Assembly (NCBI GenBank): GCA_903905665.1
Contig: CAIVHJ010000330.1
Coordinates: 1-38,208, forward strand
Reading direction: 5' to 3'
Length of the DNA stretch: 38,208 nucleotides
DNA from: an uncultured Phycisphaerales bacterium
GTDB lineage: Bacteria; Planctomycetota; Phycisphaerae; UBA1845; CAIVHJ01
Shown: positions 4,801-37,069 of the stretch, in pieces
Position numbering within the stretch: position 1 is the first letter of the stretch
Layout: the number at the start of each line of letters is the position of its first letter
Position numbers and translations under genes: made by a program
The notes under the pieces: generated by a model
The model's database searches: none
Told to the model about the DNA's origin: nothing
Seen by the model: the letters and a program-made list of their open reading frames with translations, nothing else

Positions 4801-5209
4801 GGCGCTGATAGGTAAGGGAAGTTGTTGAAAGAGTTATAGAGGAACCGCCGCTTCCTCCTGTGACTGTTGACCAATAGGGAGCGCCCGCCGCGCCGCTAGA
4901 GGTATAAACCTGTCCGACTGTGCCTGGTGCTACCCCAGATATGATGGTAGTTGAAACGCCAGAATAGTACGGCATCGAGTATTGCGTAGCGACGTTTATC
5001 GTACCGCCAGCTCCACCACCTCCACCAGATCCCGCAGTTGTCTGTGTTGACCCATCGGCCCAATAAAGTGCCTTTATATGGGCTTTCTGATTAGTCTGTC
5101 CAGCATTTGTGCTGACGTTTATGACATAGTTTCCAGCCGGCGGCCCTGGGACCGCACAGGTAAACGAAGCCAGGCCTAAGAGCGCCGCTATTTTAAAGAG
5201 CCTATTCAC
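1844..5209 (-). CDS. Large Gly/Ser/Thr-rich tail-fibre-like protein, 1121 aa, with signal-peptide-like N-terminus
   Basis: GTG start. N-terminus is MNRLFKIAALLGLASFTCAV. The motif G-Q-x-[LY]-T-S-x-G-x(4,5)-P-x-W-[ST]-T occurs three times (GQVYTSSGAAGAPYWST, GQVLTSGGAGAVPTWTT, GQFLTSGGPVANPTWTT), as in many phage fibre proteins. Poly-G linkers are present. It is the largest gene of the late arm. Confidence 0.8.
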   Translation of the reverse strand: MNRLFKIAALLGLASFTCAVPGPPAGNYVINVSTNAGQTNQKAHIKALYWADGSTQTTAGSGGGGGAGGTINVATQYSMPYYSGVSTTIISGVAPGTVGQVYTSSGAAGAPYWSTVTGGSGGSSITLSTTSLTYQRPVMVYTSSTSLVLSSNSYNGSATVACLFPDGDMRTDNTTSHVTAFSSMTASLTGTVQGGVNVGTTTINTSYEGYCVKSQANSTDFVFVVSTTVPIVSNISKLNTAFGTNGWIALGLWRVGDNQTGGEQRTSGSFLTGYQSGACTYFSNGRSWTTLSPVPGYEIMFSSGAAIQAVWNYSPGMSGFTVPQNVTFASVHIAAQDIQEFQLISADGNQTPYMLVPSTGNSNTQITVDHVAIKKGLKMTKVYAAGNYGSDTTIQGFCDDAISQGMTMLWSSTTVNNTTGGGGGYAVEPATVTFNLAKGVTASTGTFSSVTTYPLTVNNADVAGPLEGGMLFKVSGSQYGSIRVWNYTSATSEAPMVFATLGGDAMYLNSAGQLSLGSQSIDNKLNVFGSGMFASSRHTAPANGLYVEGATILGSTLTVTSSSTFNGNVGISSGVLLSGSAGVNGQVLTSGGAGAVPTWTTASSGGASTLAVATGTSTGFTGTVSSPTAVVNFNSSQFAGALTGSATAYMSLLASSVTLQGNTVSLAALSSSMTAVGVATGTISGNVTNLTSSMTAVGISTGTLFTLANGKVNYASFTVSVPLQYNNTTGAFGVDKISLSTGVIGTLPAGNMVSTAAFITSTQTISGQRTHSSTIIISTTIGLGGLGTVGTAGQFLTSGGPVANPTWTTITSAGLASTQTWTGQETWASPSPSTFTYGVYAGSITTPNITVSSNAIFSGATFYANAATVISTMTVSSATASNLSVTGTLTGRLISATQNDITSGAVMGAFSLSNSVVGSTVVGTNGTVNGGAGTTFTAVGANGYVYGGVTGNSSGVKGENIASGPVGYGGWFSASGATQNYGVFIDSGQFQVNRGSATFNGIIQSTAIYVSSATIGMDEYANGAYVAISTITWLNGNMQKVTLTANTAFNFIAPAHPGTLTLRILTGAGSFACTWPAAVHWSGGTAPTITVTASKVDFVVCKYASDGVYYCSASGTQNFTP

Positions 5210-12241: not shown

Positions 12242-12531
12242 TAGGAGTCTCTCACCGGCTTGCCTTTAACGAATATGTCTTCCTCTGCGTCAGTTCCTTT
12301 TCCCCACGTTGACGATGGAACCTCTCGATTTGCGAAACCCGTATTCCCAGTTGTCGTCCTCTTTCTCCAAAAGAAGAAAAAGTCAGTCTCAGCGGCTATC
12401 CCCGAATACAGATTCAGAATATGTGCGCGAGCGCCCGCCGATATAGACCCCGATGGTATTGGAGCTCCGGTTCCCATTGGACCTTTACCGAAGTCTATGG
12501 CTGATCGGCGGCGCTCGGCTGTATTAATCAA
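12241..12531 (-). CDS. Hypothetical virion-module protein, 96 aa
   Basis: Translationally coupled on both sides (ATGA at 12528-12531, TAATG at 12241). Lies within the structural operon. Confidence 0.6.
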   Translation of the reverse strand: MINTAERRRSAIDFGKGPMGTGAPIPSGSISAGARAHILNLYSGIAAETDFFFFWRKRTTTGNTGFANREVPSSTWGKGTDAEEDIFVKGKPVRDS

Positions 12532-13457
12532 GTCAGTTGCCCTTTTGTGTAGGTTGTCCCATCATCGCTCAATGTTGCCGTTGCGATAACCGTCCCTGCA
12601 TTATTTTTGATGCTCTCTTCGTTTGAAGTCGCCGTATGCTCATTGCGGAGACTCATGTAAGAGAGCATAAGAGCCTGGTAGATTGTCGGGGTTGAATCTG
12701 GCACGGAAACAAGTTCCGTCATGCTATCGCTACTGAGGGCTGTTCTAATCTGCGTCAATACCGATGCCAGAGCCGATGATCCCAGCGCATTGACTGTCCC
12801 GATGGTCACTCCCGTCTGACTGGCTCCAAGATTGACTGTCTGTAACGTCGGATCGAAATTACTGATGGACCCAGACACAGGTAAAGCCGCTATGATCGCT
12901 TTCAGATCAACACCAGACGTTCCGGCAGTAACGTGCCCCGCCATAGCCTCGTCCCATACCGCCGCGGCGATCGTAGCTGCCGACGGACCAGATGATCCAC
13001 CATCGACAATGGCTTCAAGAGAATCGGTTGACTGATCAAATGTCTGACCTGAGTTCTTGTTCATAATCAGATCCAAGAAGCTCCCAATAGTCGCCGGCAC
13101 TCCTGCCGCTGTCACCTTTGCCAATTTATCGAGTAGGTACGTTTTGAGGACGGCTCCAATACCCTGTTCCTCGCTTGTCCCATCAAAATAGATGGCGTTC
13201 CCGCCTATATTTGGATCGCCATAAGTCGTCGAAGCATAGTAGATGTAGTCGTAGTACCCAGCGGTGATTGTGGCAGGAAACATTGCCTTGTAGTACCCAG
13301 TCGTCCCATCTTCCGTTAGAAGGTTAAGATAGGTAGCCCAATTCGCTGAATTGAATGCTTCAAACGATGACCCATTCCAGTATTGGCCGGATGCGTCATG
13401 GATGACAGCGTAGATTGTTTGTCCTGACTGAGAGGTGCATTTCAGATAGGCGGCCAT
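12528..13457 (-). CDS. Hypothetical virion structural protein, 309 aa
   Basis: Long ORF in the structural operon. N-terminal beta-rich part (GQYWNGSSFEAFNSANWATY...) and an Ala/Ser/Thr-rich C-terminal part. Confidence 0.7.
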   Translation of the reverse strand: MAAYLKCTSQSGQTIYAVIHDASGQYWNGSSFEAFNSANWATYLNLLTEDGTTGYYKAMFPATITAGYYDYIYYASTTYGDPNIGGNAIYFDGTSEEQGIGAVLKTYLLDKLAKVTAAGVPATIGSFLDLIMNKNSGQTFDQSTDSLEAIVDGGSSGPSAATIAAAVWDEAMAGHVTAGTSGVDLKAIIAALPVSGSISNFDPTLQTVNLGASQTGVTIGTVNALGSSALASVLTQIRTALSSDSMTELVSVPDSTPTIYQALMLSYMSLRNEHTATSNEESIKNNAGTVIATATLSDDGTTYTKGQLT

Positions 13458-13458
13458 A

Positions 13459-14355
13459 TTAGTAGTCCGTTACCACTTGAGCAAATTCGTGGAGATCAGT
13501 CCCATATTGCGCTGTTACAACCAATTTCTGTACCTCTTGCATCCATAATCCCCATTCCGTAGGGCCTCTCGTATCGTCATTGAGCATCATGTGTTTTGCT
13601 TTAATCCCTTGAATCCAAAAATTGCGCCATTCCAGATACAGCCGGCTCATCAGAGCAGAATTGAGGTCCGTTTTCATCAGATTGCCGTAGTAGAAGAATT
13701 TCATAGCATAGGTCTGATTATTATCTGGAGCGCAATCCAAAATAAACTCGTCATAGTCCTCATCTCCCATCGGATAGGCTTTGGATGGCCTTCCAACAAG
13801 CGATGGGCGAGCTAATCTAAACTCTTCAACGACATGCTCAAATTTAATCGGGTTTTTTTGGTCGATAATCATATAGCCTGACCCAGAAGCGGGAGCAACC
13901 CTAAACCCTGGTGTAACCGTAAGCGTGATCGTTCCTGAATTGTTCGCCAAAGCAATAATTTGAGAGGCCGAAGCAATCCCTGTCCCCGATGTGATGACAA
14001 TTTCCTTTCCAATGACATCAGAAAACCCTTGTGTTGACCCCGAAGCCATGATAAGCGTTGTTGTAGATCCACCTTGGGCTGTTCCTATGACTGACCCAAA
14101 CATAATTTGAGCGCTCATGTCACTTGAAAAGTCCGTTGGGCATGAATACCGGCTTTGTCCAGGGACAAGGATTCCATAAGCGAAGGTTTGCATGATTTTT
14201 GGTTGTCGGCAAGCCTTCCAAACCTCATTTTTGAGTTGTTCCATGACCTCATTCTGGTATCGAAGCGTCGTCGCAGAGTCAGGATGGCTCTCGTTGGCCT
14301 GTTGTAGCCCTTCAGTTACGATACTAGCGAGCGTTGGCAGCGTTGGCGACGCCAT
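13459..14355 (-). CDS. Hypothetical virion protein, 298 aa (head-tail adaptor candidate by position)
   Basis: First gene after the GT/MT cassette downstream of the capsid gene. Its start overlaps the GT 3' end by 32 nt. No named motif recognised. Confidence 0.65.
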   Translation of the reverse strand: MASPTLPTLASIVTEGLQQANESHPDSATTLRYQNEVMEQLKNEVWKACRQPKIMQTFAYGILVPGQSRYSCPTDFSSDMSAQIMFGSVIGTAQGGSTTTLIMASGSTQGFSDVIGKEIVITSGTGIASASQIIALANNSGTITLTVTPGFRVAPASGSGYMIIDQKNPIKFEHVVEEFRLARPSLVGRPSKAYPMGDEDYDEFILDCAPDNNQTYAMKFFYYGNLMKTDLNSALMSRLYLEWRNFWIQGIKAKHMMLNDDTRGPTEWGLWMQEVQKLVVTAQYGTDLHEFAQVVTDY

Positions 14356-15454
14356 TTAAGACCTCCTGATACGCTTCGACCCACATGGGCCACATTTTAT
14401 CGCAGTCAAAATGCCTTTCAACCGTCTGCCGAGCCGCGATTCCCATGCGGCGCCGTAACTGATCGTCCTGTGTCATTTGATTAAGGGCAAGAAGCCACCC
14501 TGATGGCGAATTGGCTTCGACAAACATCCCGTTATCCGCCACCAAGTCCATCATCTCCGCATAGGGGGAGCAGAATGAACTTACACTTGGAACCTCTAGG
14601 GCCGCCATTTCTAACCATTTGATTGAGCTCTTGCAATTATTGAAATCCGAATCCACCAATGGGATAACGGCGAAGTCCAAATCAAGGATTGCCGAAACGA
14701 ATGGATAGGCTGGCGTTGGGCACCACCCTCGGTATTCAATACGATTCGGGTCTATGCCTTCGAGTGTCCCTTCAAATTTCTGCCCTAAGATCACGAGCGT
14801 GACGTTAGGATTGACCCGCATAAACTCTGGAAGCACCTGGGCGAGGATCTTCCAGTCCTCGAAATGGCTATAGCCTCCAGACCATCCAACTCGAATGCCT
14901 TTGTGGGTTTGGAAAGGGAGTTTCTGCCACAATGACAGGTCAATGCAATTTGGCAGCACCTTGATGTTGGGATTAAACTCACTAAAAACCTTCGCCAGTA
15001 TGGGCGTCGTTGTAGTAACCATGTCAGCTACAGACATGGCCTTTCTTGCCCGTTCAAGGCCGGCTTTGTTCTTAGCAAGATCGATATTCTTTCCATCCGT
15101 CCAGATATCCAGGCTCCCGCCTTTATAGGGGTGACTGTAATTCTCTGTTCCAAAATCCTTGTAGTGTGGCGATAATGGGTCTATTCGGAATAGATTGTCG
15201 TCCCAATCCACGATGACTTTCTTTCCGAGTTTTTTAAACCCCTCAATAGCATTGCAGAACTTCTCATCAAATACGCGGGGAGTCACGCAGATATCAGCCC
15301 ATAAAAGTTTTAAGGCAATATCATCATCGCTATCACCCTTTTCGACGTGCTTGACCTCAAAAGTCTTGTCGTGAAGAGCAGCGGTCTGTAGCGGTTGTGC
15401 GAGGCGATACCATCCGCACCCGCCATTATCTCTGAGGAAGTAGAGGACTTTCAT
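14324..15454 (-). CDS. Glycosyltransferase (GT-B fold, GT1/GT4-like), 376 aa
   Basis: Start MKVLYFLRDNGGCGWYRLAQP is ATGA-coupled to the methyltransferase stop and has GGAGG upstream. The C-terminal half has a GT-B signature (VGWSGG..., ...CKSSIKWLEMAALEVPSVSS, an E-x7-E-like motif). Confidence 0.8.
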   Translation of the reverse strand: MKVLYFLRDNGGCGWYRLAQPLQTAALHDKTFEVKHVEKGDSDDDIALKLLWADICVTPRVFDEKFCNAIEGFKKLGKKVIVDWDDNLFRIDPLSPHYKDFGTENYSHPYKGGSLDIWTDGKNIDLAKNKAGLERARKAMSVADMVTTTTPILAKVFSEFNPNIKVLPNCIDLSLWQKLPFQTHKGIRVGWSGGYSHFEDWKILAQVLPEFMRVNPNVTLVILGQKFEGTLEGIDPNRIEYRGWCPTPAYPFVSAILDLDFAVIPLVDSDFNNCKSSIKWLEMAALEVPSVSSFCSPYAEMMDLVADNGMFVEANSPSGWLLALNQMTQDDQLRRRMGIAARQTVERHFDCDKMWPMWVEAYQEVLNGVANAANAR

Positions 15455-16134
15455 AGCGTCCCCTCCATCATCCACTCTGTCATGTTCGTGTTCACGTACG
15501 GAATAACGGGATGACGCTGGCCTGGGACTCGGTTAGGTGTTCGTCCAGGCATATCAGAAATGTTTAATTGGCCCTTTGCGGCCTCTTTAGCGAACCAAGA
15601 CCGTTTATACCACCAGCGATACCCATCCCACCGGGATTCCTGCTGTTCAGTTTCATCAAGAGGATGGATCGAAACGTAGCATTTCCCGGTCGTTTTCAAT
15701 GCTTTTGACAATGCTTTGCATAAATCTTGGATATCATCCGGGTGGACATGAACCGTAACAGAATTGCAAAGGATGTAGTCGTACTGGTCTGCTACTTCAA
15801 ATGAATCCATCAATTGAAGAATGGGAATGTGCTTTGACTTTAGTCTAACGCACTCCAACATCGCTTCTTTTAGAAGACCAACAGAAATATCTGACCCGTT
15901 AAAATTCCCGTCTTCAAGATAATCAACAAGTCGTACTGTCCCTCGGAGGGCTCCGCATCCGTAGTCCAAGAAGGAATGGGTAGGTCGCAGACCTTGTGCA
16001 ATCATAAAATCATGCTGCATCCTCGCTTCATATCCGACGTTTCCTCCAGAGAAAACCGCGGCTTCCTCAGAGGTTCCATTAAACGCCCATCGTTTCTGAT
16101 AATCGGGCCAATGATTAATAGCTACAGCGGTCAC
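15451..16134 (-). CDS. Class I SAM-dependent methyltransferase, 227 aa
   Basis: Motif I is FLDYGCGALRG. An acidic post-I residue (NGSDIS) and the motif IV-like YDYILCNSV fit the Rossmann-fold pattern. Confidence 0.8.
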   Translation of the reverse strand: MTAVAINHWPDYQKRWAFNGTSEEAAVFSGGNVGYEARMQHDFMIAQGLRPTHSFLDYGCGALRGTVRLVDYLEDGNFNGSDISVGLLKEAMLECVRLKSKHIPILQLMDSFEVADQYDYILCNSVTVHVHPDDIQDLCKALSKALKTTGKCYVSIHPLDETEQQESRWDGYRWWYKRSWFAKEAAKGQLNISDMPGRTPNRVPGQRHPVIPYVNTNMTEWMMEGTL

Positions 16135-16439
16135 TTTTTAAGCGCCTCCACCGTCATTGTGGGTCGTCCGTAATCAGAGTTCAAAAACTCTCTCCAAGCC
16201 TTATTTCGATCTATAACGTCTTTTGAGTTCGTGATTCTCTTCATCCACCCTGGATGGCAGCGATCGTACTCAAGCAAAGTGGTGTTGTTATATCTCCCGA
16301 CAAAACGCATCGTCCGATCCTTCGTAAATCCGTTGGATTGGTCTTTTGCCAGTTCCTTTGAGTAATCGATGAGTTCAGACATCGGCTCTGCGTGGAGAGC
16401 TTTGATTCGGTCTGATTCAAAATTGGCTCGTATAAGCAT
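16131..16439 (-). CDS. Hypothetical protein, 102 aa, first gene of the GT/MT cassette
   Basis: ATGA-coupled to the methyltransferase gene. Its ATG lies 67 nt downstream of the capsid gene stop. Confidence 0.65.
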   Translation of the reverse strand: MLIRANFESDRIKALHAEPMSELIDYSKELAKDQSNGFTKDRTMRFVGRYNNTTLLEYDRCHPGWMKRITNSKDVIDRNKAWREFLNSDYGRPTMTVEALKK

Positions 16440-16449
16440 CGTTTCCTTG

Positions 16450-16493
16450 CCCCTCTCGGGGCCCCGGAGAGCCGTTTGTGCGACCCTCCGGGG
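16450..16493 (-). promoter_or_regulatory. Twin GC-rich hairpins in the gap after the capsid gene (possible attenuator or RNA-stability element)
   Basis: CCCCGGAG (16462-16469) pairs with CTCCGGGG (16486-16493), an 8-bp stem. The adjacent CCCC-tctc-GGGG (16450-16461) forms a second hairpin. No U-tract follows, so this is not a canonical intrinsic terminator. Confidence 0.3.
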
Positions 16494-16506: not shown

Positions 16507-17412
16507 TCAAACCTGGTAATAACCTGTCATTAGACCGGAACCTTTTTCGTTCCGACACTCTAATGTTAATTCCGCTTCGATCTTGTACCGATCGCTCGAA
16601 CCCGTCTTAGCCAGCTCAACCCGATTGACTGGGCGAAGCCATGCCTTGACCCACAACTCCATGGCGCCCAGATTCAGGATATATCCCGGCTGGACATCAT
16701 TGATGATGTGGTGCAGACGAACCATGATCGTTCCAAAGTCCGATTCATACACGTCAACGGTGTTGACGAGTTTCTTCTCTTCGGCTTCGATCCGGCGCGT
16801 GTTCGATGTGAATCCGCTGATCTTCCGCTTCTGGTACGAACCAACGAGGGTCACTGACGGATATCCACCCTGAGCCCAAACCAATGCCAAATTCGCATTA
16901 AAGTTTGTCTCAGATAACGCTTCTGATGTCGCCGTTGCTGTGGTGAGATTCGTCGCAATCCATCCGAACATACCTTTCAACTGCCGAGCGACAGTCGCAC
17001 TTCCGACTGCCGTGTTGGAGTTGATGATGAGGGCATATTCGATATCGCGCGCCAGTTCCTTGGTTCTCTTCAAGGTCTGGTAGTCGATTTCGTCGTTACG
17101 GCCAGCCGCTACAACAGCTCTCTGAGTTTCAGAAACCTGAAACACTTTCCAGAGGATCTGAGTGTAGTTACCAAGGCGAACGGTGGGGACAGCGGCGGTA
17201 GCCGTCGCGTCATCACCTTCGACCTGGGCATTGGCCGCAGCCGTTGCCAGTACGTCAGTCTGCCATTCGTGAAGAGTCTGAATGGCGCGTGAAGCCCCTG
17301 TGTTCGACGTAACCCACGTATCCATCGGTGAGATGTTGGTGATCACGTCAATCAGGTCTTCCCGATTACCAATCGCTTGATAAGTTTGGAATGTTCCTGT
17401 TGGTGCAGTCAT
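16507..17412 (-). CDS. Major capsid protein, HK97 fold, SU10/DUF5309-type
   Basis: The N-terminal signature GNREDLIDVITNISPMDTWVTSNTG...HEWQTDVLATAAANAQVEGDDA...NYTQILWKVFQVSETQRAV...ELARDIEYALI matches the DUF5309/SU10 capsid family pattern as I recall it. It follows a scaffold-like gene. Confidence 0.85.
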   Translation of the reverse strand: MTAPTGTFQTYQAIGNREDLIDVITNISPMDTWVTSNTGASRAIQTLHEWQTDVLATAAANAQVEGDDATATAAVPTVRLGNYTQILWKVFQVSETQRAVVAAGRNDEIDYQTLKRTKELARDIEYALIINSNTAVGSATVARQLKGMFGWIATNLTTATATSEALSETNFNANLALVWAQGGYPSVTLVGSYQKRKISGFTSNTRRIEAEEKKLVNTVDVYESDFGTIMVRLHHIINDVQPGYILNLGAMELWVKAWLRPVNRVELAKTGSSDRYKIEAELTLECRNEKGSGLMTGYYQV

Positions 17413-17423
17413 CTAATTTGTCC

Positions 17424-18518
17424 TCAGCTCCCCGGAGCTTCCCGCTTCAAGGCAAAGACTTTTTGCCAATCTTCAGAACGTCCGGTTTTCGTAGCGACCG
17501 CAAAGGCCGCTTGATACCGTGACTGCCAATCTTGATCTGGAGACGTACGACTTGGAACGCCAGTAGACCCTTCTACCATAGGGACGATGACAGGCTGATT
17601 ATTCCGATCTAGCACCAGGTGAGTCCCTGCCGGGGCCGCTACAACAGGCGCCGCAGGAACGACACTAGATGGAGTCAGAACGGGAGCCACAGGTTTTTGG
17701 CCTGACAAGACATCCTTGAGTTTCATTTCCTGGTATTTGGCATACCAGAACCCCTGAGAATCAAGCTGTTGTAAAAGCTGAGGATTCGCGGCCACTTCTG
17801 GCTTGGCGAGTTCAGCGTCTACAAAGGCTCGAATCTTAGGGACGTATTCCTTGAAGTCTGTCGCGCCTAATTCCTGCTTTGCTCTTTCATCAAGTTTGTC
17901 AACTCCTGATTGAAACCTTTGAGGGGCAATCGAAGCGTTTAATTCTGCGATTTGCCTCTCTAGATTCGCAATCCGCTCCGCTTCAGGGCTGGCTTTGGGA
18001 GGCGGCGTTTGCTGAGGCTCTTTTGGAGGAGCCGCAGGAGGTGGCTGCTGATTTCTCAGAGCCGCCCGTTCCACTTCCAAGGCCGCCCGTTCACGGGCTA
18101 GTTCTTGGCTTTTCTGTGTGTTGTGGCGTTCGAGCTGTATGTTCTTCAGAGCTTCTTTGGCTGGCACAGTCATTTCAACGCCGTCCACTTTTATACGCAC
18201 CATCGTTCCATCCGGCAGCTTGCTGAGGTCAAGTTCGCCGGGTGCGGTAGGTGCTGGTGGAGTCGATGTCGCGGGCGTGATGGCAGGAGGCGGAGTGGCC
18301 GCTACAGGCGCAATTCCTCTACCCTTGTCTGCGAAATCCTTCACAGGTCGGTTGACGATGAGTCCGTCTTCCGATACAAAGTCTGGGAATAACTTCGCAG
18401 CCGTGGATGGGTTTGTCGGCGTAACTGGCTCCCCGGCCTTCGGTGCCGGCGGTTCACTTCCCGGTCTGTCTAGGTTAAGCGCCGCTTCTTCCGCGGTGGC
18501 TCTATCCTTTATTTCCAT
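17424..18518 (-). CDS. Scaffolding protein candidate, 364 aa
   Basis: Lies between the portal and capsid genes. Pro/Ala-rich N-terminus, then a long E/Q/R/A-rich helical region (ELARERAALEVERAALRNQ, ERIANLERQIAELNA). Confidence 0.6.
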   Translation of the reverse strand: MEIKDRATAEEAALNLDRPGSEPPAPKAGEPVTPTNPSTAAKLFPDFVSEDGLIVNRPVKDFADKGRGIAPVAATPPPAITPATSTPPAPTAPGELDLSKLPDGTMVRIKVDGVEMTVPAKEALKNIQLERHNTQKSQELARERAALEVERAALRNQQPPPAAPPKEPQQTPPPKASPEAERIANLERQIAELNASIAPQRFQSGVDKLDERAKQELGATDFKEYVPKIRAFVDAELAKPEVAANPQLLQQLDSQGFWYAKYQEMKLKDVLSGQKPVAPVLTPSSVVPAAPVVAAPAGTHLVLDRNNQPVIVPMVEGSTGVPSRTSPDQDWQSRYQAAFAVATKTGRSEDWQKVFALKREAPGS

Positions 18519-18536: not shown

Positions 18537-18875
18537 TCATCCCTCTTGCGGGGTAGAGTTTGCAAGCTCGTCCAACTTCTGCCGTGCGTCTCTTGCCTCT
18601 TGGATTCTCGAAAGGATACGCGATTCAATGCGGTCCATCGTTTCCAGTTGGCCTTTGATGTGCGCGAGCTGAGTGACCGAGCTTGGTACGAAATCGAGCC
18701 CTCGAATCATGCGAATCATGTCCTTTTCCATCGGGGCAAAAATGTTTTCTTTCATCCATTCGAGGTGCTTTCCTTCAACAAATTCCTCATAGGGCCTGGC
18801 GTCCCGTATGGCCTGTTGCCACTTAGCGGCTTCCTCGGCCTGAGTCTTAATGATGTCGTCCATTTCTGTTTTCAT
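18537..18875 (-). CDS. Hypothetical protein, 112 aa (head-assembly module)
   Basis: ATGA-coupled to the portal gene stop. Charged, helical-looking sequence. Confidence 0.65.
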   Translation of the reverse strand: MKTEMDDIIKTQAEEAAKWQQAIRDARPYEEFVEGKHLEWMKENIFAPMEKDMIRMIRGLDFVPSSVTQLAHIKGQLETMDRIESRILSRIQEARDARQKLDELANSTPQEG

Positions 18876-20830
18876 GCTGGTGCCAAGATATTCTGTTGAG
18901 CTGGGCTCATTGGACCCGATACGCCTGGAGGTGAAGGATTGCCTTTAGGTGATCCCTGCCCTTGCTGAGGCGGAGGAGGTTGCATGGCGGGCAATTTTAA
19001 TTCGTCAATGTTTCTAAACCCAAGAATCTTAGAAATCTGTTCAAACGGGATCTGTGGATTAAACAGTTTGACGTTTTGCGCTTGGACGGCTCCCACTTGG
19101 AGAAGTTGCCCCATCTGAGCGTTCGCCTGGTTCCCAAGTTCCGCTAAAACTTTCCATTGGGACATCTGTTGTTGTTTGTTTTGGCCGAGCGCTGGCATGA
19201 AGTCAAAATCGCCTTGGATGGATAGCGACGGTGGCGTTCCGACGTAGTTCCCGTCGTTATCTTTGATAAATTTCCACCCAAGAACCCGCCCTGTGACTTG
19301 CTCAATAAAGACATCCGACTCGTACTCCTGTTCCAATCGGAGGAGGAACTGAAACAGGGGTACGAGTCCAGTCAGGGCAATGTTGCGGATAATCATGTTC
19401 GTCTTTTTAGACGAATTGGACGCCAAGATATTGGACGTTGTGGCCGCTTGCTCGTCATTGGCCTGGCTGTTGACTCCAAGTTGTTCAGGGCTCACGGATG
19501 AGATTTCAGCATAAAGGGCATCGTTTCTCTGTTGCGCCGGGAGACTGATCGCCACAGGATTTGCCATCTCCATCTCTCGGACGCCTTCTTGAGAGATATC
19601 CATCCCTTGCACGACTCCTCCGATCTTGCGGAGCTTCAAGGCCATCAGATCGATGCCGGCATTCTTTCCTACCAAGATGGGAGGACGAAGGGCGCGGGCT
19701 ACTGCCTCCCGCTCCTGGTTAAAGCGAGCGTTTGTTTCTTTTTGGAGGCCCTCCGTGACCTCTGGGAAGCTCTTACCATACATAGAATGGCTTTCAGGAA
19801 ATGATGTTGCGACAACGAATGGCGGTCGAACGGGCTCAGTTGGATCGAATTGATAGGGCAGGTTATTATCCACCCATCCGCGCAGTTCGGCCATGGGACG
19901 TTCCGCCGAGCCTCCCAAAACAAAACTCCCTGAGATGAGGTGCTCGTCATCCCCTTTCGGCTGTAGATCCCAGTATTCGTAGACCCAAATCGTTTGAAGG
20001 TCTTCAATGTCTTCAGGAGCTCCGGCGAACGGCGACCCTTGATTAAGATTTCTTTGGTTTTTGATGAGGTCGGTTCCCGGTATAGTCCCCGCCCATGGGA
20101 TGAGATCGACATTCTTATACCCTCTCCGTTTGCAGTAATCCCGAGTCCTTTTTACTCGGTGGCAAATTGGAAACTGCCAATAGTTTTTCCATGTGGATTC
20201 ATAGTGAAAAAATAGGTCTTCGTAAGGAACGCACTCAACCATCGGCGTGAAGAATTGGACGACCTTCTGGAGGTCTTTCGGGTCCGGCGGTTCGACGGAA
20301 TGACCATCCTCGTCAACAATGAACGCTGTCCGAACACCTTTGACTTTGGATTTGACGACTTTAAACTTGGGATAGATTTTTAGGATGCCGACTTTGTTCT
20401 TTATGGCGTCCTGAACAAACTCGTAAATTTCTTGATAGGCATTAATCGGGTGTCCATTCAGACGATAGTTCAGGAGCGCTTTAACAATGTCCAAAGTCTC
20501 CCGAGGAACGCTCTTCCAAGACCGAATCGTGCACAACTCCTCAAAGTCAAAGAACCACGTTTCGAGACATTCTTCCATAATCCTTTGGACTTGCGCGTAG
20601 GTCTTCGGGATAAACAGGCGTGGCACACCGAGCATTTCCGAGAAGGCGATTTCTTTCTTATCGAATTTGGCGTCATAGAGATCGTTGTCCTTTGCCCACC
20701 TGAACTCAACCAAATTCCTGACATTTCGGCTCATTCGGAGAATATCGTATCCCCGTCGGATCGACTCAAAATCTCCCGCCTTGCCGATATACTCAACCGC
20801 GCTGTCTGATGGGAAAGGAACGGCATCCAT
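18872..20830 (-). CDS. Portal protein candidate, 652 aa
   Basis: Size and position (2 nt after terL, upstream of scaffold and capsid). The Gln/Pro-rich C-terminal tail is common in portals. No motif-level proof. Confidence 0.65.
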   Translation of the reverse strand: MDAVPFPSDSAVEYIGKAGDFESIRRGYDILRMSRNVRNLVEFRWAKDNDLYDAKFDKKEIAFSEMLGVPRLFIPKTYAQVQRIMEECLETWFFDFEELCTIRSWKSVPRETLDIVKALLNYRLNGHPINAYQEIYEFVQDAIKNKVGILKIYPKFKVVKSKVKGVRTAFIVDEDGHSVEPPDPKDLQKVVQFFTPMVECVPYEDLFFHYESTWKNYWQFPICHRVKRTRDYCKRRGYKNVDLIPWAGTIPGTDLIKNQRNLNQGSPFAGAPEDIEDLQTIWVYEYWDLQPKGDDEHLISGSFVLGGSAERPMAELRGWVDNNLPYQFDPTEPVRPPFVVATSFPESHSMYGKSFPEVTEGLQKETNARFNQEREAVARALRPPILVGKNAGIDLMALKLRKIGGVVQGMDISQEGVREMEMANPVAISLPAQQRNDALYAEISSVSPEQLGVNSQANDEQAATTSNILASNSSKKTNMIIRNIALTGLVPLFQFLLRLEQEYESDVFIEQVTGRVLGWKFIKDNDGNYVGTPPSLSIQGDFDFMPALGQNKQQQMSQWKVLAELGNQANAQMGQLLQVGAVQAQNVKLFNPQIPFEQISKILGFRNIDELKLPAMQPPPPQQGQGSPKGNPSPPGVSGPMSPAQQNILAPA

Positions 20831-22806: not shown

Positions 22807-24546
22807 TTATCTCCTCTCCCCGTGCATGATGGCTTTGATCGACGCCGCTCCCGCTGACGGTGGTACAACCCTTAACTGTAAAAACCGCCAGTTCAAGTTA
22901 CCGAAGTCGACAAACGTGCTGGACGACGGATACACGAACGAGGTGACGGTATACGTCGATCCCGTCTGAACGAAGTTCGTCCCATCGTTTCCATACCAGA
23001 ATCCGAACGCCGGAGATCCTGCGATAGCAGGGACTGTCAGCGTATAGGTGTCCGTTGTGGTCTTCGTCGCAGACGATACCCACGTCATAGGGACTCCCGC
23101 CACTGCCATGGTCGATGTCAGTGCCAATTGGATGCTGTTGGCCGTTATAGGGATGACGTAGTACGTTACTCCCTGACCAAGCATAACTGCCGTCCCTCCG
23201 GTCGTTGCCGTCGAATAATACAAGGGCGTTGTCCCAGCCGCCGTCGAAAGGTACACTCCCAACCCCAAAGGGAGTCCGTGACTGGCGATCCCGATCGTCT
23301 GACCCGACAACGTAAACGAGCTGTTGGTGCCTCCGTACATCGATCCCGTCGCTACGCCCGTGATGCTACTAGACGACGTATATGGGCTGATCGTCATCCC
23401 GTTCTGCGTCGACGTATACACCACATACGTTGTCGTTGACCCCACCGCCGTCGATGTCGCGTAAATAACGCCTGTGGTTGCCACGCAAGTCGATGTCACG
23501 ACCCCCGTAAACGATGAATTAATCGCCTGATACAGCGACGTGCAGGTGCTCCCGGTACTCGTCACCGGATACCAATGCGTATTGGCTTTTAGACACGTCC
23601 CGTTAATACAGAGCTGCGCGTTATCGGCGCCGCCGGTCATCATGGCCGCTGACACTGTGATGGACGAAATACTCGACACCAAAGACAGTGTATTGCCAGC
23701 CGACCCCGTAAACCCTGCCGTCGTATAAATAACCGCGTACGTGTTGGTCGCCATGACGGGCATCCCGACAGCCGTGTTGGTCCCGATGAGCAGGTTGATG
23801 GCTTTCATTATGTTCTGCGCCGTAGTCGTTGTGTCGGCTCCCACCTGCCACTCATATCCCGCCCGCAGATACGCCCCCGCCACCGTTACCGTCGCCGGAG
23901 CGACTCCGCTCGCAAACGTCGCTGACCCAATCGCCGCCTTACTTGACGATGTGATCGCCCAGGCGTTCTGAATCGTTCCCGAACTGATCGCTGAGATCGT
24001 TACGCTCGCGCCCGATACCGTCGACGTAAGCTGTCCCGATGTCGCCGTCGACACCAAAAGTGCCCCCAAGTTTGCCGCTGTGCTCGTGGACGAAAACCCC
24101 TGCGCGACGTTCCCCCCAATCACAAACGGACTCCCCGTGTAAAACGGCGGACCCGTGATCGTTAAAACTGTCCCCGCCACGTTCGACGAAATTAATATCG
24201 ACGTGCTCGCCACCACCCCACCTAAACTCTGCGTCGTCAGTACCGTAATATACCCCGTCGCCGCCGCCGTCGAGAGTACCGCCGGGTTTACAATCGTGAT
24301 CGTCGCCGTCGAGGCTCTCCCGTCATTAAACGTCACGTTCGATAACGCGTCCGACGATACAATAACCTGCGCCGAGATGTAGTCGACATCCCGCGAACTC
24401 ATGTCTAACGTATACGTCATCGTCGCGCCACTCACTCCTACCGCCGCCGCCGCATCCGTCATTGGCGCTTCCATCGTCGTGTTGGAACCGTACAAAGGAA
24501 CTCCTATAAATAAAAATATCGCCGCTACCTGCGCTGCCCGTTTCAT
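22807..24546 (-). CDS. Ser/Thr/Ala/Gly-rich repeat protein, 579 aa, with signal-peptide-like N-terminus
   Basis: GGGAGG lies 5 nt before ATG 24546 (MKRAAQVAAIFLFIGVPLYGS...). Three ~75-aa internal modules share the pattern aromatic-x-W/G...T-[AST]-x-N-[IL]...A-I-N...V-x-A-T...G...GN/ST. GC is higher than in flanking genes (58% in one 60-nt sample). Confidence 0.75.
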   Translation of the reverse strand: MKRAAQVAAIFLFIGVPLYGSNTTMEAPMTDAAAAVGVSGATMTYTLDMSSRDVDYISAQVIVSSDALSNVTFNDGRASTATITIVNPAVLSTAAATGYITVLTTQSLGGVVASTSILISSNVAGTVLTITGPPFYTGSPFVIGGNVAQGFSSTSTAANLGALLVSTATSGQLTSTVSGASVTISAISSGTIQNAWAITSSSKAAIGSATFASGVAPATVTVAGAYLRAGYEWQVGADTTTTAQNIMKAINLLIGTNTAVGMPVMATNTYAVIYTTAGFTGSAGNTLSLVSSISSITVSAAMMTGGADNAQLCINGTCLKANTHWYPVTSTGSTCTSLYQAINSSFTGVVTSTCVATTGVIYATSTAVGSTTTYVVYTSTQNGMTISPYTSSSSITGVATGSMYGGTNSSFTLSGQTIGIASHGLPLGLGVYLSTAAGTTPLYYSTATTGGTAVMLGQGVTYYVIPITANSIQLALTSTMAVAGVPMTWVSSATKTTTDTYTLTVPAIAGSPAFGFWYGNDGTNFVQTGSTYTVTSFVYPSSSTFVDFGNLNWRFLQLRVVPPSAGAASIKAIMHGERR

Positions 24547-24701
24547 CGGTCCCTCCCACACGTCGGACATTTACCAGGATTCCCCTCGGCGTTCACGGCA
24601 TGAGACGCCTCCTCTGACGCCTCAATACGCTCGCCGTCTACCTGCTCCTTCGCTTCGTCCCTCTTGATCCCCTTATCCGCCTTACCCGTTCGCTTGTCCA
24701 T
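24543..24701 (-). CDS. Small ORF, 52 aa, Lys/Glu-rich with C-terminal CPTCG (not in ORF track)
   Basis: GGGAGG lies 9 nt upstream of ATG 24701. Translation: MDKRTGKADKGIKRDEAKEQVDGERIEASEEASHAVNAEGNPGKCPTCGRDR. Its TGA overlaps the ATG of the 579-aa gene (ATGA). Confidence 0.45.
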   Translation of the reverse strand: MDKRTGKADKGIKRDEAKEQVDGERIEASEEASHAVNAEGNPGKCPTCGRDR

Positions 24702-36130: not shown

Positions 36131-37069
36131 ATGTGTAAGTTTTTCAGCGCCGTCAGTGACGGAAAAGGCCGTGTTGAGTTTTTTAAATTGGAAGATATCG
36201 TGAGGATCATGTCCTCCGGCAATCCTGAAGGGTACGATTTTAACAGTCACACCAGCATCCTGCACTCGCTCGGGATTAAAGGCAAAGACGAAGATGTCTG
36301 GAATAAGTGGGAGTATGAACCGGAAACGAAAACGCTGACGATCGATGGGGCTATTCATGCTGACGATTCGGTGGAGGTTCAGAAAAAATTAGACGGTTTT
36401 TTTGTCGGGAAAGGTATCGGTTATTTGAGGAATCTGTACAACCGGAACTCGGGCTACGGGAACTCGGGCGACTGGAACTCGGGCGGCGGGAACTCGGGCT
36501 ACTGGAACTCGGGCAACGGGAACTCGGGCAACTGTAACTCGGGCAACTGTAACTCGGGCAGCGGGAACTCGGGCGACTGGAACTCGGGCAACCGGAACTC
36601 GGGCTGCGGGAACTCGGGCGACAGGAACTCGGGCTACGGGAACTCGGGCGACTGGAACTCGGGCGGCGGGAACTCGGGCGACTGGAACTCGGGCAACTGT
36701 AACTCGGGCAGCGGGAACTCGGGCAACTGGAACTCGGGCTACGGGAACTCGGGCAACGGGATTCTAAATTCCTTCTGCACAAAACGCCAATGGATGCTGT
36801 TTGACAAACCCTGCACGAAAGAACAATATGAAAAGATAGACGCTCTCGATTGGTCGTGGTTTTTTATTAATCGGTGGGTCAGTGAATCCGACATGAGCGA
36901 TCAAGAGAAAAAGGACCATCCGTCATTCAAGACATGCAGCGGCTATCTGAAAACCATTGACTACAAAGAGGCGTTCAAAGCGTGTCCGGAATCGTTTATT
37001 GATGCGGTTAAGAAACTCAAGAATTTCGACAAGAAGAAGTTTAAAGAGATATCCGGACTAGAGGTCTGA
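36131..37069 (+). CDS. Pentapeptide-type repeat protein, 312 aa (21 x [x-x-N-S-G]) flanked by N- and C-terminal globular domains
   Basis: AAAGGAGAG SD upstream. N-domain: MCKFFSAVSDGKG...NSHTSILHSLGIKGKDEDVWNKWEYEPETKTLTIDG. The repeats span aa 104-208 (NRNSG YGNSG DWNSG GGNSG ...). The C-domain is rich in W/F/K. Confidence 0.85.
   Translation: MCKFFSAVSDGKGRVEFFKLEDIVRIMSSGNPEGYDFNSHTSILHSLGIKGKDEDVWNKWEYEPETKTLTIDGAIHADDSVEVQKKLDGFFVGKGIGYLRNLYNRNSGYGNSGDWNSGGGNSGYWNSGNGNSGNCNSGNCNSGSGNSGDWNSGNRNSGCGNSGDRNSGYGNSGDWNSGGGNSGDWNSGNCNSGSGNSGNWNSGYGNSGNGILNSFCTKRQWMLFDKPCTKEQYEKIDALDWSWFFINRWVSESDMSDQEKKDHPSFKTCSGYLKTIDYKEAFKACPESFIDAVKKLKNFDKKKFKEISGLEV
36440..36760 (+). repeat. 15-bp coding tandem repeat, 21 units, invariant core AACTCGGGC
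   Basis: Read directly from the sequence. A 48-nt block (ggctacgggaactcgggcgactggaactcgggcggcgggaactcgggc) recurs exactly 180 nt apart (from 36452 and 36632). The block caactgtaactcgggcagcgggaactcgggc recurs 150 nt apart. Confidence 0.95.

Follow-up and report, generated by a model that had tools for sequence, protein, structure and literature searches.

On a 38.2-kb contig of an uncultured freshwater-sediment phage, an SU10-like podovirus, the slot between the major capsid gene and a probable head-to-tail adaptor gene was found to carry a methyltransferase (MT) gene and a glycosyltransferase (GT) gene. Gene content and gene order in relatives show that this slot is a conserved site for cassettes of glycan biosynthesis, which vary in composition but encode soluble proteins throughout. 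The MT-GT pair is predicted to form a minimal, late-expressed glycosylation island between the head module and the adaptor gene, and glycosylation of the virion is proposed, tentatively, as the best reading of its role. The comparative genomics described below is considered to strengthen this idea well beyond what the single locus suggests. The entire 38.2-kb contig is referred to as the window.

Organization of the capsid-to-adaptor region

The genes from capsid to adaptor are all on the minus strand, in the order SU10-type major capsid gene, 102-aa gene, class I SAM-dependent MT, GT4-like GT-B glycosyltransferase and probable adaptor gene, and every pair of neighbours is overlapping or closely packed. 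Gene order together with the Pfam and PHROG assignments bears out the initial annotation in that three genes are located between the major capsid gene and the other virion genes. The upstream boundary of the slot is the SU10/HK97-type major capsid gene (16507..17412), of which the product matched PF17236 SU10_MCP (E 1.8e-83) and phrog_1328, with 9ny2 (E 4e-40) and the SU10 structure 7z45 as PDB relatives. It is followed by the 102-aa gene (16131..16439), the MT gene (15451..16134; 227 aa, GTG start), the GT gene (14324..15454, within an ORF open to 15475, ATG 15454 being most likely the true start) and, as the downstream boundary, the 298-aa adaptor gene (13459..14355). Next to it lies the gene for an acidic, S/T-rich 309-aa protein of the virion module (12528..13457), also on the minus strand.

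The MT stop and the GT start meet in ATGA at 15451-15454 with GGAGGGG upstream, and a 32-nt overlap (14324-14355), preceded by AGGAGG, joins the GT stop to the start of the 298-aa gene, both junctions being as initially described. A second ATGA had been assigned to 16131, the junction between the 102-aa stop and the MT start; the letters at 16131-16134 read GTGA, and the GTG start is supported because homologues align from residue 3. No excess of promoters or terminators was seen inside the gene block. Operon-like coupling to the late structural genes, as had been proposed, is upheld by the overlaps, the co-orientation and the Shine-Dalgarno sequences.

The 67-nt spacer between the capsid and 102-aa genes carries tandem RNA hairpins (16449..16492, minus strand), a 12-bp GC-rich stem and then a GCCCC-GAGA-GGGGC hairpin (dG -35.4 kcal/mol, z -3.3). 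The two-hairpin architecture, with different sequence, was also detected in four relatives, and no U tract was found at the spacer hairpins. These hairpins are probably an attenuator or a 3'-stabiliser of the capsid mRNA.

Properties of the encoded proteins

Pfam, PHROG and the fold model agreed with the assignment of a class I MTase with DYGCGALRG and of a GT-B glycosyltransferase. Pfam placed the GT in Glyco_trans_1_4 (28.7 bits against a cut-off of 27) and PHROG in phrog_7162 'glycosyltransferase' (E 6e-39), and its AlphaFold2 model (pLDDT 93) showed a two-Rossmann GT-B fold. The leading Foldseek matches were the GT4 enzymes GlgM, MshA, PimA/B, PglA and BshA (E 1e-16 to 1e-12), and PglH, tetrahydrobiopterin GT and WaaG-like enzymes were also among the structural relatives. 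As the acceptors of characterised GT4 enzymes are mostly lipid-linked, sugar or small-molecule, the GT fold gives no indication that the acceptor is a protein. Grouping with T4-type DNA glucosyltransferases or with Gtr-type O-antigen enzymes, which the initial annotation had named as evidence against its proposal, was not observed; neither T4 BGT nor AGT was among the 50 best fold matches. The GT is soluble with no TM segments, its family is acidic (pI 5.0-6.6), and its N-terminal domain is not basic (median pI 5.7). Nearly all of its 237 homologues are from contigs of 47 kb or less.

The MT gave matches to Methyltransf_12, 25 and 11, each exceeding its Pfam cut-off, with motif I at residues 57-65. 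Searched against PDB, its profile retrieved generic class I enzymes, including the Rickettsia outer-membrane-protein lysine methyltransferases (E 1e-5), and no sugar O-methyltransferase was specifically matched. No DNA-MTase family was found in the Pfam scan, no DPPY-type or C5-type motif was seen in the translation, and TM segments were lacking. The MT homologues number only 33, all at least 47% identical and all in close relatives; the MT is a clade-specific accessory to the GT.

The 102-aa protein is basic (pI 9.3), carries no TM segments and gave no match in Pfam, PHROG or fold searches. It has 47 homologues (identity 52-85%, length 101-102), and its gene was found in GT-bearing loci without MT. 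Since a homologue (HMM E 6.5e-9) lies between the capsid and adaptor genes even in L182, the sole GT-less relative within the clade, the 102-aa gene was assigned to the head module, outside the sugar cassette. The glycosylation cassette, first thought to comprise three genes, is thus kept for MT and GT and given up for the 102-aa gene. The 298-aa protein is probably the head-to-tail adaptor, to judge from a weak match to PF24175 SU10_adaptor (E 0.0075), from faint or weak matches of homologues in two relatives, and from the positional equivalent in GenBank MW202801 (SU10_adaptor, E 5.5e-8).

Variation of the slot among relatives

The 102-aa, MT and GT genes each have many metagenomic homologues, and complete synteny of the three is kept in three IMG/VR relatives, at identities of 70-78% (GT), 62-76% (MT) and 64-86% (102-aa). 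Synteny was then compared over 80 IMG/VR loci carrying a GT relative of 31-78% identity. In 72 of these the GT gene is preceded, on its own strand, by an SU10-type capsid gene at a distance of 0.37-7 kb, and seven of the other eight have less than 3.3 kb of upstream sequence. In 18 of the 20 loci with a recognisable adaptor gene, the GT gene adjoined it, the gap ranging from -25 to +48 nt; the same adjacency was found in four MAG contigs and in MW202801. Over about 200 loci the GT is retained at this adaptor-side position, with capsid identity down to about 30%.

The interval between capsid and GT holds 73 gene families, whose products serve nucleotide-sugar synthesis and sugar tailoring or are additional GTs and methyltransferases. 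Pfam matches in this interval included methyltransferases (at least seven families), GT2, GT4/GT1, radical SAM/SPASM, sugar C-methyltransferase, NTP_transferase, epimerase/dehydratase, SDR, hexapeptide acyltransferase, WbqC, PIG-L and cytidylyltransferase; Polysacc_synt_2, formyltransferase, PhyH and a NodB-like protein (the last by GenBank annotation) come from further loci. Methyltransferases, among them the sugar C-methyltransferase domain Methyltransf_14, are the commonest island companions of the GT. TM-like segments were detected in only one of 230 island ORFs. By these comparisons the GT, constant across very divergent relatives, anchors an island that is otherwise hypervariable, and MT plus GT in the window are its minimal version. 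The fixed position of the GT beside the adaptor gene, with hypervariable partners, suggests that its acceptor is conserved and belongs with the virion module.

L182 has the capsid, small and adaptor genes but no GT, which shows the island to be accessory and dispensable. In GT-less relatives the slot is occupied by collagen-repeat, tail-collar-domain, BNR and TPR proteins, the first three being of surface-appendage type. No gene for hydroxymethylase, TET/5mYOX, C5-methyltransferase, Gtr-type enzyme or integrase was recognisable in the window.

Candidate acceptor proteins

The C-terminus of the capsid protein has no S/T-rich extension like those of mycobacteriophages. Residues 154-163 of this protein (TNLTTATATS; codons at 16924..16953, minus strand) form a short Thr-rich loop, and a short T/G-rich loop at this place is common to the GT-bearing capsid proteins; L182 has TNVTAAAA at this loop, a single and phylogenetically confounded case. 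This Thr-rich loop may be regarded as a weak candidate acceptor site, as a lead only. The 309-aa protein (pI 4.2), which among six relatives keeps its N- and C-terminal segments but varies in its centre, is a possible glycan acceptor.

The operon had been noted to encode unusually Ser/Thr-rich proteins. The S+T content is indeed 27.3% (1844-5209), 28.8% (22807-24570) and 23.0% (12528-13457, the 309-aa protein), but that these values are unusual is not established. Capsid loops of GT-less relatives are equally or more S/T-rich, and in one GT-less relative the probable adaptor gene is followed directly by a gene annotated 'serine-rich adhesin', at the same place as the 309-aa protein. GT-bearing and GT-less relatives are not told apart by S/T richness, and S/T-rich proteins are not evidence for the proposal here.

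Discussion

Glycosylation of a capsid by viral enzymes is known for Chlorovirus PBCV-1, a eukaryotic giant virus with a double-jelly-roll major capsid protein, which is glycosylated by virus-encoded GTs of GT-A type, one with a methyltransferase domain. Cytoplasmic virus-encoded glycosylation with methylated sugars and no need for host machinery is the point of likeness, being only proposed for the present phage; to our knowledge, the PBCV-1 GT genes have no genomic linkage to the capsid gene. In bacteria, the islands for cytoplasmic protein O-glycosylation, such as those for flagellin and those with the GT4-family GtfA/GtfB of serine-rich-repeat adhesins, consist of hypervariable soluble sugar-nucleotide, tailoring, MT and GT genes beside the gene for the modified abundant surface protein, and glycosylation in the cytoplasm precedes assembly. 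These are cellular rather than viral systems, and the homology shown between them and the present island is at the level of the GT4 and class I MTase superfamilies.

The nearest architectural precedent is found in Cluster J mycobacteriophages, where an insertion of 8-10 GT/MT genes separates the capsid gene from the head-tail connector genes, and of which the authors likewise left the choice between viral and host targets undecided (PMC3706429). The slot is the same, and GTs and unrelated SAM methyltransferases vary there by genome. The likeness is one of gene layout: Cluster J differs in morphotype and host phylum, and its islands include a Ser/Thr kinase and a metalloprotease-like protein. 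Virion glycosylation itself is described for Che8 (gp108-110), Corndog (gp35-38) and Myrna (Freeman et al. 2023, cited through PMC12363180, PMC11256854 and PMC12619734), Corndog gp38 and Che8 gp110 being essential for capsid glycosylation (PMC12363180). In these phages the GTs, with methyltransferases in some clusters, are phage-encoded, late and soluble as in our case, and modify virion proteins, which is here a prediction; their glycans are on S/T-rich C-termini of capsid or tail-tube subunits, whereas our capsid protein has no such tail. Corndog genes 35-38 are inside the structural block, immediately before the gene for the capsid maturation protease, and those of Che8 are at the right genome end, outside the structural operon. 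These phages are siphoviruses and myoviruses of Actinobacteria, unlike the SU10-like podovirus from freshwater sediment, and neither GT nor MT has detectable sequence similarity to Che8 gp108-110 or Corndog gp35-38. Among cultured phages, the best full-length homologues of the GT come from KimJongPhill and Zuko, two Streptomyces phages (E 1e-23 to 1e-31, with 26-28% identity across 96-100% of the query), in which a UDP-Glc dehydrogenase-MT-GT block is located just before the small terminase gene. The MT-then-GT order, the overlapping genes and the location beside packaging/structural genes are shared; the block does not, however, follow the capsid gene, and no relationship was detected between the MTs.

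The cassette, and likewise the larger islands of relatives, might instead remodel the host envelope late in infection, acting at the cytoplasmic face on undecaprenyl-PP-linked O-antigen, capsule or glycolipid for export by host machinery, so that the altered surface blocks superinfection or stops progeny adsorbing to debris. Such a role was proposed by Benler et al. for a gut-phage GT between portal and capsid genes (PMC8008677). The closest GT folds (PimA/B, PglA, PglH, WaaG-like) use lipid-linked or glycolipid acceptors, WbqC, 4,6-dehydratase, formyltransferase, NTP_transferase and acyltransferase recall O-antigen or capsule loci, and the island gene content would serve a change of host envelope glycan equally well. 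We nevertheless consider this role unlikely: the islands lack flippase, polymerase, initiating phosphoglycosyl transferase and other multi-pass membrane proteins (one TM-like ORF in 230), the GT N-terminal domain is not basic as expected of a peripheral membrane GT-B enzyme, late expression leaves little time for surface turnover, and neither integrase nor Gtr-like genes were found in the window. It also leaves unexplained the strict anchoring between capsid and adaptor despite capsid divergence. This anchoring, one GT family being held against the adaptor gene over about 200 loci with hypervariable partners, also speaks against a soluble metabolite or non-virion acceptor (small molecule or host protein) with the slot as a permissive, highly transcribed insertion hotspot, as does the filling of the slot by surface-type proteins where the GT is absent. 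We give that possibility little weight, even though GT4 relatives include the small-molecule enzymes MshA, BshA, GlgM and tetrahydrobiopterin GT, unrelated cargo (TPR, BNR, collagen-like) enters the slot in GT-less relatives, and the island is dispensable in L182.

Alternatively, the GT might glycosylate a virion protein while the MT acts independently as a protein methyltransferase, for instance on a lysine or the N-terminus of a structural protein. The Rickettsia lysine methyltransferases among the PDB matches and the failure to match a sugar O-methyltransferase specifically would fit, and a phage tail protein has recently been reported whose methylation, carried out by a host enzyme, is essential for infectivity (PMC13445384). 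The MT is, however, ATGA-coupled to the GT, methyltransferases are the commonest GT companions in islands otherwise composed of sugar enzymes only, and the MT-then-GT order recurs in KimJongPhill beside UDP-glucose dehydrogenase; separate action of the MT is rather improbable, though less so than a non-virion acceptor. Hypermodification of DNA, in which the GT would glycosylate a modified base, as do T4 alpha/beta-GT and the 5hmC-glycan GTs, and the MT would join in base modification, is very improbable. Phage DNA GTs do share the GT-B fold and sometimes accompany sugar-nucleotide enzymes, some 5hmC-glycosylating GT-B enzymes weakly match PglH-type GT4 by Foldseek, and the MW202801 island holds a PhyH-type Fe/2OG dioxygenase. 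Pathway genes normally cluster with their GT, however, phage DNA GTs lying with ThyS-like, 5mYOX or C5-MT genes and resembling T4 BGT (Pyle et al., bioRxiv 10.1101/2023.12.21.572611); neither feature was seen here, no thymidylate-synthase-like hydroxymethylase, 5mYOX/TET or C5-cytosine methyltransferase being found in the window and neither T4 BGT nor AGT among the top 50 fold matches. In addition, the MT matches only small-molecule or protein-type class I families, the GT family is acidic, and the GT gene is within a late structural operon.

In the preferred reading, virion glycosylation, the GT would take a nucleotide sugar supplied by the host late in infection and, still in the cytoplasm, link this sugar to a structural protein of the phage during synthesis of that protein, most likely a capsid-surface component, and the MT would next methylate the attached sugar. 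In the larger islands of relatives, the same priming step would be built up into more complex glycans. If this is true, each phage lineage would acquire a different virion surface 'serotype'.

Organization of the late operon

The window is an entire metagenomic contig of 38,208 bp, which is present in freshwater-sediment metagenomes and carries on its minus strand the late operon of a podovirus. On this strand the portal gene (18872-20830; PF23899, SU10_portal) is followed by a 112-aa gene, a scaffold-like gene (17424-18518) and then the major capsid gene (16507-17412; PF17236, SU10_MCP, E 1.8e-83). Behind the capsid gene are arranged a 102-aa gene without family match (16131-16439), the gene for a 227-aa class I SAM methyltransferase (MT; 15451-16134), the gene for a 376-aa GT4-like glycosyltransferase of the GT-B type (GT; 14324-15454) and that for a 298-aa probable adaptor with a weak SU10_adaptor match (13459-14355), after which more virion genes follow.

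The ORF list starts GT from GTG at 15475, but the consensus of the GT family begins with MxKIxYFLK and fits the ATG at 15454; from this start, the gene overlaps the MT stop codon as ATGA. The initial annotation had described the genes behind the capsid gene as translationally coupled to each other and to the downstream structural gene. The junction sequences agreed for both the ATGA at the MT/GT junction and the 32-nt overlap between GT and adaptor, each with a good Shine-Dalgarno sequence, and called for a single correction, the junction between the 102-aa gene and MT being GTGA instead of ATGA. Promoter-like and terminator-like motifs within the block showed no excess over shuffled expectation. 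Terminal repeats in the window and a cultured representative of the phage were looked for and not found; a search for RNA runs gave none, the sequencing runs found being DNA metagenomes.

Directly 3' of the capsid stop codon, a tandem hairpin was identified at 16449-16492 on the minus strand (dG -35.4 kcal/mol, z -3.3). A GC-rich stem (11-14 bp across the window and its relatives) comes first and a hairpin of GNRA/UUCG type with 4-5 bp second, and a U tract is absent. The same architecture, with different sequence, is kept in four relatives (L004:3689-3767, L005:6739-6880, L100:7608-7694 and L011:6054-6134). The tandem hairpin is likely an attenuator or a 3'-end stabiliser that raises capsid mRNA above the downstream genes, and probably separates the capsid message from these less abundant genes, an arrangement that would be in keeping with GT and MT being made in catalytic quantity.

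Elsewhere in the window, within the early or replication region, a pentapeptide-repeat gene (36131-37069, plus strand; PF01469) adjoins the genes for YqaJ and RecT and contains about 30 tandem 15-nt units at 36364-36813. A protein of 587 aa, 29% of it Ser+Thr, is the product of 22807-24570 (minus strand), upstream of the genes for a small protein of 104 aa and the large terminase, an uncommon location for a gene of fibre-like type; the protein is conserved at 38-50% identity in L003 and L010.

Properties of the glycosyltransferase and the methyltransferase

The AF2 model of GT (pLDDT 93.2, pTM 0.90) is composed of two Rossmann-like domains, that is, the GT-B fold. By Foldseek search against PDB, the best 50 of 322 significant matches were all GT-B enzymes, mostly of GT4, with TM scores of 0.6-0.7; the closest solved relatives were GlgM, MshA, PimA/PimB', PglA, BshA, HepE and PglH (E 5e-16 to 1e-12). 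A profile-to-PDB sequence search was concordant, giving BshA, TarM, MshA and WlaC. The match to PF13692 (Glyco_trans_1_4) is only just above the cut-off (28.7 bits against 27), those to PF00534 and PF13524 are under their cut-offs, and NCBIfam GT4 matches are sub-threshold only; a match to phrog_7162 was found at E 6e-39. Within the region of the C-terminal E-x7-E motif for nucleotide-sugar binding, E282 is invariant in the family, with the pattern [CG]KS[PAS][IL]KW[LI]E, and the residue 8 positions upstream is Cys or Gly instead of Glu, so that the second Glu alone is kept. Members of the GT family have acidic pI values (5.0-6.6), and lack both a transmembrane segment and a basic N-terminal domain.

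The family is broad, with 237 matches, the best 120 of them at E < 1e-98 and nearly all on contigs of at most 47 kb. The best full-length homologues from cultured phages belong to Streptomyces phages KimJongPhill and Zuko, where a UDP-Glc dehydrogenase-methyltransferase-glycosyltransferase block precedes the terminase gene. Distant homologues (24-28% identity) in Phapecoctavirus and Arthrobacter phages lie in non-structural regions, and are uninformative about the acceptor. In Phapecoctavirus, a genus of E. coli phages, an operon of four glycosyltransferase genes was noticed near the DNA polymerase gene (NC_052662.1 45046-48190 and other genomes); two of the four products are distant homologues of GT (about 24%), and most copies carry the annotation 'hypothetical'.

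The MT scored above the cut-offs for Methyltransf_12 (35.5 bits against 30), Methyltransf_25 and Methyltransf_11, and its motif I, LDYGCGALRG at residues 56-65 (DYGCGALRG at 57-65), is invariant in the MT family. The Pfam scan gave no match to DNA-methyltransferase families. The closest solved relatives by PDB profile search, PH0226, phosphoethanolamine N-methyltransferases and Rickettsia lysine methyltransferases, are generic, and neither PDB nor NCBIfam matches indicated a substrate class. The original assignments of GT as a GT-B enzyme, by profile matches and structure comparison, and of MT as a class I methyltransferase, by Pfam matches and motif I, were thus both upheld. The MT family is narrow: its 33 members have identities of 47% or more and come without exception from the subclade of the window. 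Next-tier relatives, with GT 45-51% identical, carry the capsid gene, the 102-aa gene, GT and the adaptor gene in the absence of MT, indicating that MT is a clade-specific addition to a pre-existing GT.

A variable glycan island anchored by GT

IMG/VR was scanned with the GT family alignment. About 200 stretches were found to encode a GT relative, and 80 of them, at 31-78% identity, were retained. In 72 of the 80 loci a same-strand SU10-type capsid gene is located 367-7041 nt upstream of GT, and seven of the eight exceptions have less than 3.3 kb of upstream sequence. On the other side, GT abuts the adaptor gene (-25 to +48 nt) in 18 of the 20 loci with a recognisable adaptor. Three IMG/VR contigs of close relatives keep the full order of capsid gene, 102-aa gene, MT, GT and adaptor, followed by homologues of the 309-aa, 96-aa and 520-aa genes, at 62-91% identity to the window. 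Adjacency of capsid gene and GT was also observed in the MAG contigs L020-L023 and in the freshwater podovirus MW202801 of GenBank.

The intervals between capsid gene and GT are highly variable in content, the 230 ORFs from 44 loci falling into 73 families. Pfam matches among these ORFs include methyltransferases (at least seven families), GT2, GT4/GT1, radical SAM/SPASM, a sugar C-methyltransferase domain, NTP_transferase, epimerase and GDP-mannose-dehydratase types, SDR, hexapeptide acyltransferase, WbqC, PIG-L deacetylase and cytidylyltransferase. One relative (L007) adds a Polysacc_synt_2 4,6-dehydratase and a formyltransferase, and MW202801 adds PhyH and a NodB-like protein, as annotated. 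TM-like hydrophobic segments were detected in only one of the 230 ORFs, a small one, indicating that the islands encode soluble enzymes for nucleotide-sugar synthesis, tailoring and transfer, and no export machinery. GT is thus the constant element on which a variable sugar island is anchored, and the MT and GT of the window are this island in its minimal form. Both enzymes are soluble, and their genes form part of the late structural operon, to which they are coupled in translation.

The hosts of this podovirus lineage are probably environmental Gram-negative bacteria. Capsid-GT pairs were noted on contigs binned as Thermodesulfobacteriota/Desulfococcaceae (CAZWLY010000014.1, 108.8 kb; JAQYVU010000004.1, 114 kb; JAZFSJ010000376.1, 42 kb), which may be prophages and thus a hint, though a hint only, of the host, or else binning or assembly artefacts. 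A host link through L010 (ENA ERZ25039590 contig_49031, 366.8 kb) was set aside. Here the phage structural module ends within the counterpart of the 520-aa structural gene, at locus positions of about 12865-13100, and passes directly into rplK-rplA-rplJ-rplL-rpoB-rpoC with apparently fragmented genes; the join is most likely the product of a chimeric or error-rich long-read assembly.

Relatives lacking GT and the position of the 102-aa gene

A second scan was anchored on the capsid protein, using a narrower capsid alignment. Among the loci obtained, 65 have 3 kb or more of sequence behind the capsid gene; GT was present in 11 of these, and 51 run from the capsid gene to the adaptor gene in 371-4251 nt without GT. 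In the clade of the window (capsid at least 49% identical), nine of ten loci carry GT. The tenth, L182, lacks it, and its homologues of terminase, portal, capsid and adaptor show the usual identities. The island is thus accessory. In those relatives without GT whose slot is occupied by additional genes, these encode a collagen-repeat, BNR-repeat, tail-collar-domain or TPR protein (L219:10315-14046, L206:4948-6180, L199:10548-11894, L242:2270-3712). The collagen-repeat, tail-collar-domain and BNR-repeat proteins are of surface-appendage types, as would fit a slot for accessories of the capsid surface, and the slot seems to be a hotspot for accessory genes near the capsid gene in general.

The 102-aa gene had initially been counted in the glycosylation cassette. 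Its product is basic (pI 9.3), with the motif SNGFTKDRxMRxVG...HPGW...KAWREFL, and gave no Pfam, PHROG, NCBIfam or fold match (AF2 model poor, pLDDT 64). The sole gene between capsid and adaptor in L182, which lacks GT, encodes a 105-aa homologue of it (L182:6106-6423; HMM E 6.5e-9), and the 102-aa gene is also found in GT-bearing loci devoid of MT. Membership in the cassette was accordingly ruled out: the gene, which directly follows the capsid gene, belongs to the head module, perhaps for head completion or decoration, and the actual insertion is MT-GT. A gene of this type was also noted at L012:5211-5504. Equal-sized genes occupy the same position in MW202462, a relative without GT, and in MW202481; comparison of their products with the 102-aa protein by hhalign gave E 0.03 and a probability of 1.7%.

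Candidate acceptors in the virion

The C-terminus of the capsid protein, ...ECRNEKGSGLMTGYYQV, is collinear with that of relatives lacking GT, and a Ser/Thr-rich C-terminal extension, the mycobacteriophage-type acceptor, was not found on it. The tail tube is absent in podoviruses. Three columns of the capsid alignment seemed enriched in Ser/Thr among GT-bearing loci, but the enrichment originates from a clade-specific indel; capsids from loci without GT have a longer loop at least as rich in Ser/Thr, and this feature was ruled out as an acceptor signature. Residues 154-163 of the capsid protein, TNLTTATATS, have a T/G-rich form common to most capsids accompanied by GT, the corresponding sequence in L182, where Thr has given way to Ala, being TNVTAAAA. 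This Thr-rich loop is the sole lead to an acceptor, coming from a single comparison that is confounded by phylogeny.

The initial annotation had also drawn support from Ser/Thr-rich proteins encoded in the same operon. By comparison across loci this argument failed, as Ser/Thr richness does not separate loci with GT from those without. In MW202462 an annotated 'serine-rich adhesin' is encoded downstream of the probable adaptor with one small gene between, a position resembling that of the 309-aa protein which follows the adaptor in the window. The latter (12528-13457, minus strand) is acidic and Ser/Thr-rich; its N- and C-terminal thirds are conserved while its centre is replaced between relatives, a sequence pattern typical of a receptor-binding or surface-exposed module.

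Target of the glycosyltransferase

To our knowledge, experimental proof that phage-encoded enzymes glycosylate virions is confined to a few actinobacteriophages. In such phages, this modification alters antibody recognition. As in Corndog and the Cluster J mycobacteriophages, the GT and MT genes of the window are embedded in the late structural operon. Glycosylation of the capsid requires gp38 in Corndog and gp110 in Che8 (PMC12363180), Corndog genes 35-38 being located just upstream of the capsid protease gene. In Cluster J mycobacteriophages, 8-10 glycosyltransferase and methyltransferase genes separate the capsid gene from those of the head-tail connector (PMC3706429). With GT, MT and the 102-aa protein as queries, BLASTP against Che8 gp108-110 and Corndog gp35-38 gave nothing better than E 0.56. 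The enzymes of the window are thus without sequence similarity to these Che8 and Corndog proteins, and its capsid protein is without the Ser/Thr-rich tail, which argues against carrying the mycobacteriophage model over unchanged. The initial proposal that the cassette decorates the virion is accordingly supported in part: operon architecture favours it and precedents exist, whereas the 102-aa gene, the Ser/Thr argument and sequence similarity to the mycobacteriophage enzymes no longer speak for it.

Transfer of sugar to phage DNA is unlikely. DNA-glycan GT-B enzymes resemble T4 BGT and cluster with base-modification genes (Pyle et al., bioRxiv 10.1101/2023.12.21.572611). In the window, 20 of 23 shortlisted ORFs of at least 90 aa outside the block were scanned with Pfam; VapE-like primase/helicase, DEAD helicase, YqaJ, RecT, pentapeptide, Collar and DUF2341 matches were obtained, and no hydroxymethylase, TET/5mYOX or C5-methyltransferase. 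The T4 alpha- and beta-glucosyltransferases were absent from the best 50 of the 322 significant PDB matches, and the acidic pI of the GT family also argues against DNA as substrate. Serotype conversion of the Gtr type, an O-antigen modification by temperate phages which employs a membrane GtrA flippase, GtrB (a GT2 bactoprenol glycosyltransferase) and a serotype-specific GT-C enzyme encoded beside integrase/attP, does not agree with the findings either: GT, MT and the 102-aa protein are devoid of transmembrane segments, as are all but one of the island ORFs of relatives, and the large ORFs scanned did not include an integrase. Clustering of GT with DNA-glucosyltransferases or Gtr-type enzymes, an outcome considered at the outset as counting against virion decoration, was not observed, its best matches being GT4 enzymes.

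Remodelling of host envelope glycans late in infection, as proposed for another late-operon glycosyltransferase (Benler et al., PMC8008677), stays a live if rather improbable rival, because GT4 enzymes often use lipid-linked acceptors and the gene content of the islands resembles that of O-antigen loci. Yet it leaves the strict anchoring between capsid and adaptor genes unexplained, and is unsupported by membrane components. We tentatively favour glycosylation of the virion, a reading which we hold at slightly under even confidence, with the conserved GT acting on a conserved phage acceptor and MT then methylating the sugar. GT would recognise this acceptor, most plausibly a capsid-surface protein from the same transcript, and carry out a conserved step; in minimal islands the donor would be a host nucleotide sugar, and larger islands would make and attach unusual sugars, thereby diversifying the virion surface.

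Implications for SU10-like podoviruses

Actinobacteriophages already provide examples both of virion glycosylation and of glycosyltransferase/methyltransferase cassettes within structural operons. New here are a sequence-unrelated GT family, its occurrence in a podovirus lineage of environmental hosts, and the recognition of the slot as a hypervariable, all-soluble glycan island with a single conserved anchor GT; a literature search of incomplete coverage found no paper describing a capsid-anchored island of this kind. Independent of the target of GT, the arrangement provides a rule for annotation: a conserved GT abutting the adaptor gene, the interval from GT to the capsid gene being filled with variable sugar enzymes. 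If virion glycosylation is correct, it would bear on the reading of glycosyltransferase 'auxiliary metabolic genes' in viromes and on phage engineering, where the MT-GT module, being compact, of two genes and coupled to the capsid, could be portable.

For the lineage as a whole, we suggest with more reserve that in SU10-like podoviruses, a large uncultured group with probably Gram-negative sediment hosts, the hypervariable island might constitute a virion serotype system independent of that of mycobacteriophages, each capsid bearing a glycan coat that is specific to its lineage and in many cases methylated or tailored in other ways. Such a system would be analogous to the O-antigen or flagellin glycosylation islands of bacteria. 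Glycosylated capsids would then be common among environmental podoviruses, GT relatives having been found in about 200 IMG/VR loci and 237 protein clusters; the trait would have arisen independently via an unrelated GT family, and would be under diversifying selection like that on bacterial surface-glycan loci. The glycan could possibly mask the capsid from binding factors of host or environment, or tune adsorption and particle stability. A glycosylated virion would also have a bearing on phage interactions with hosts, decoys, grazers and particles in the sediment.
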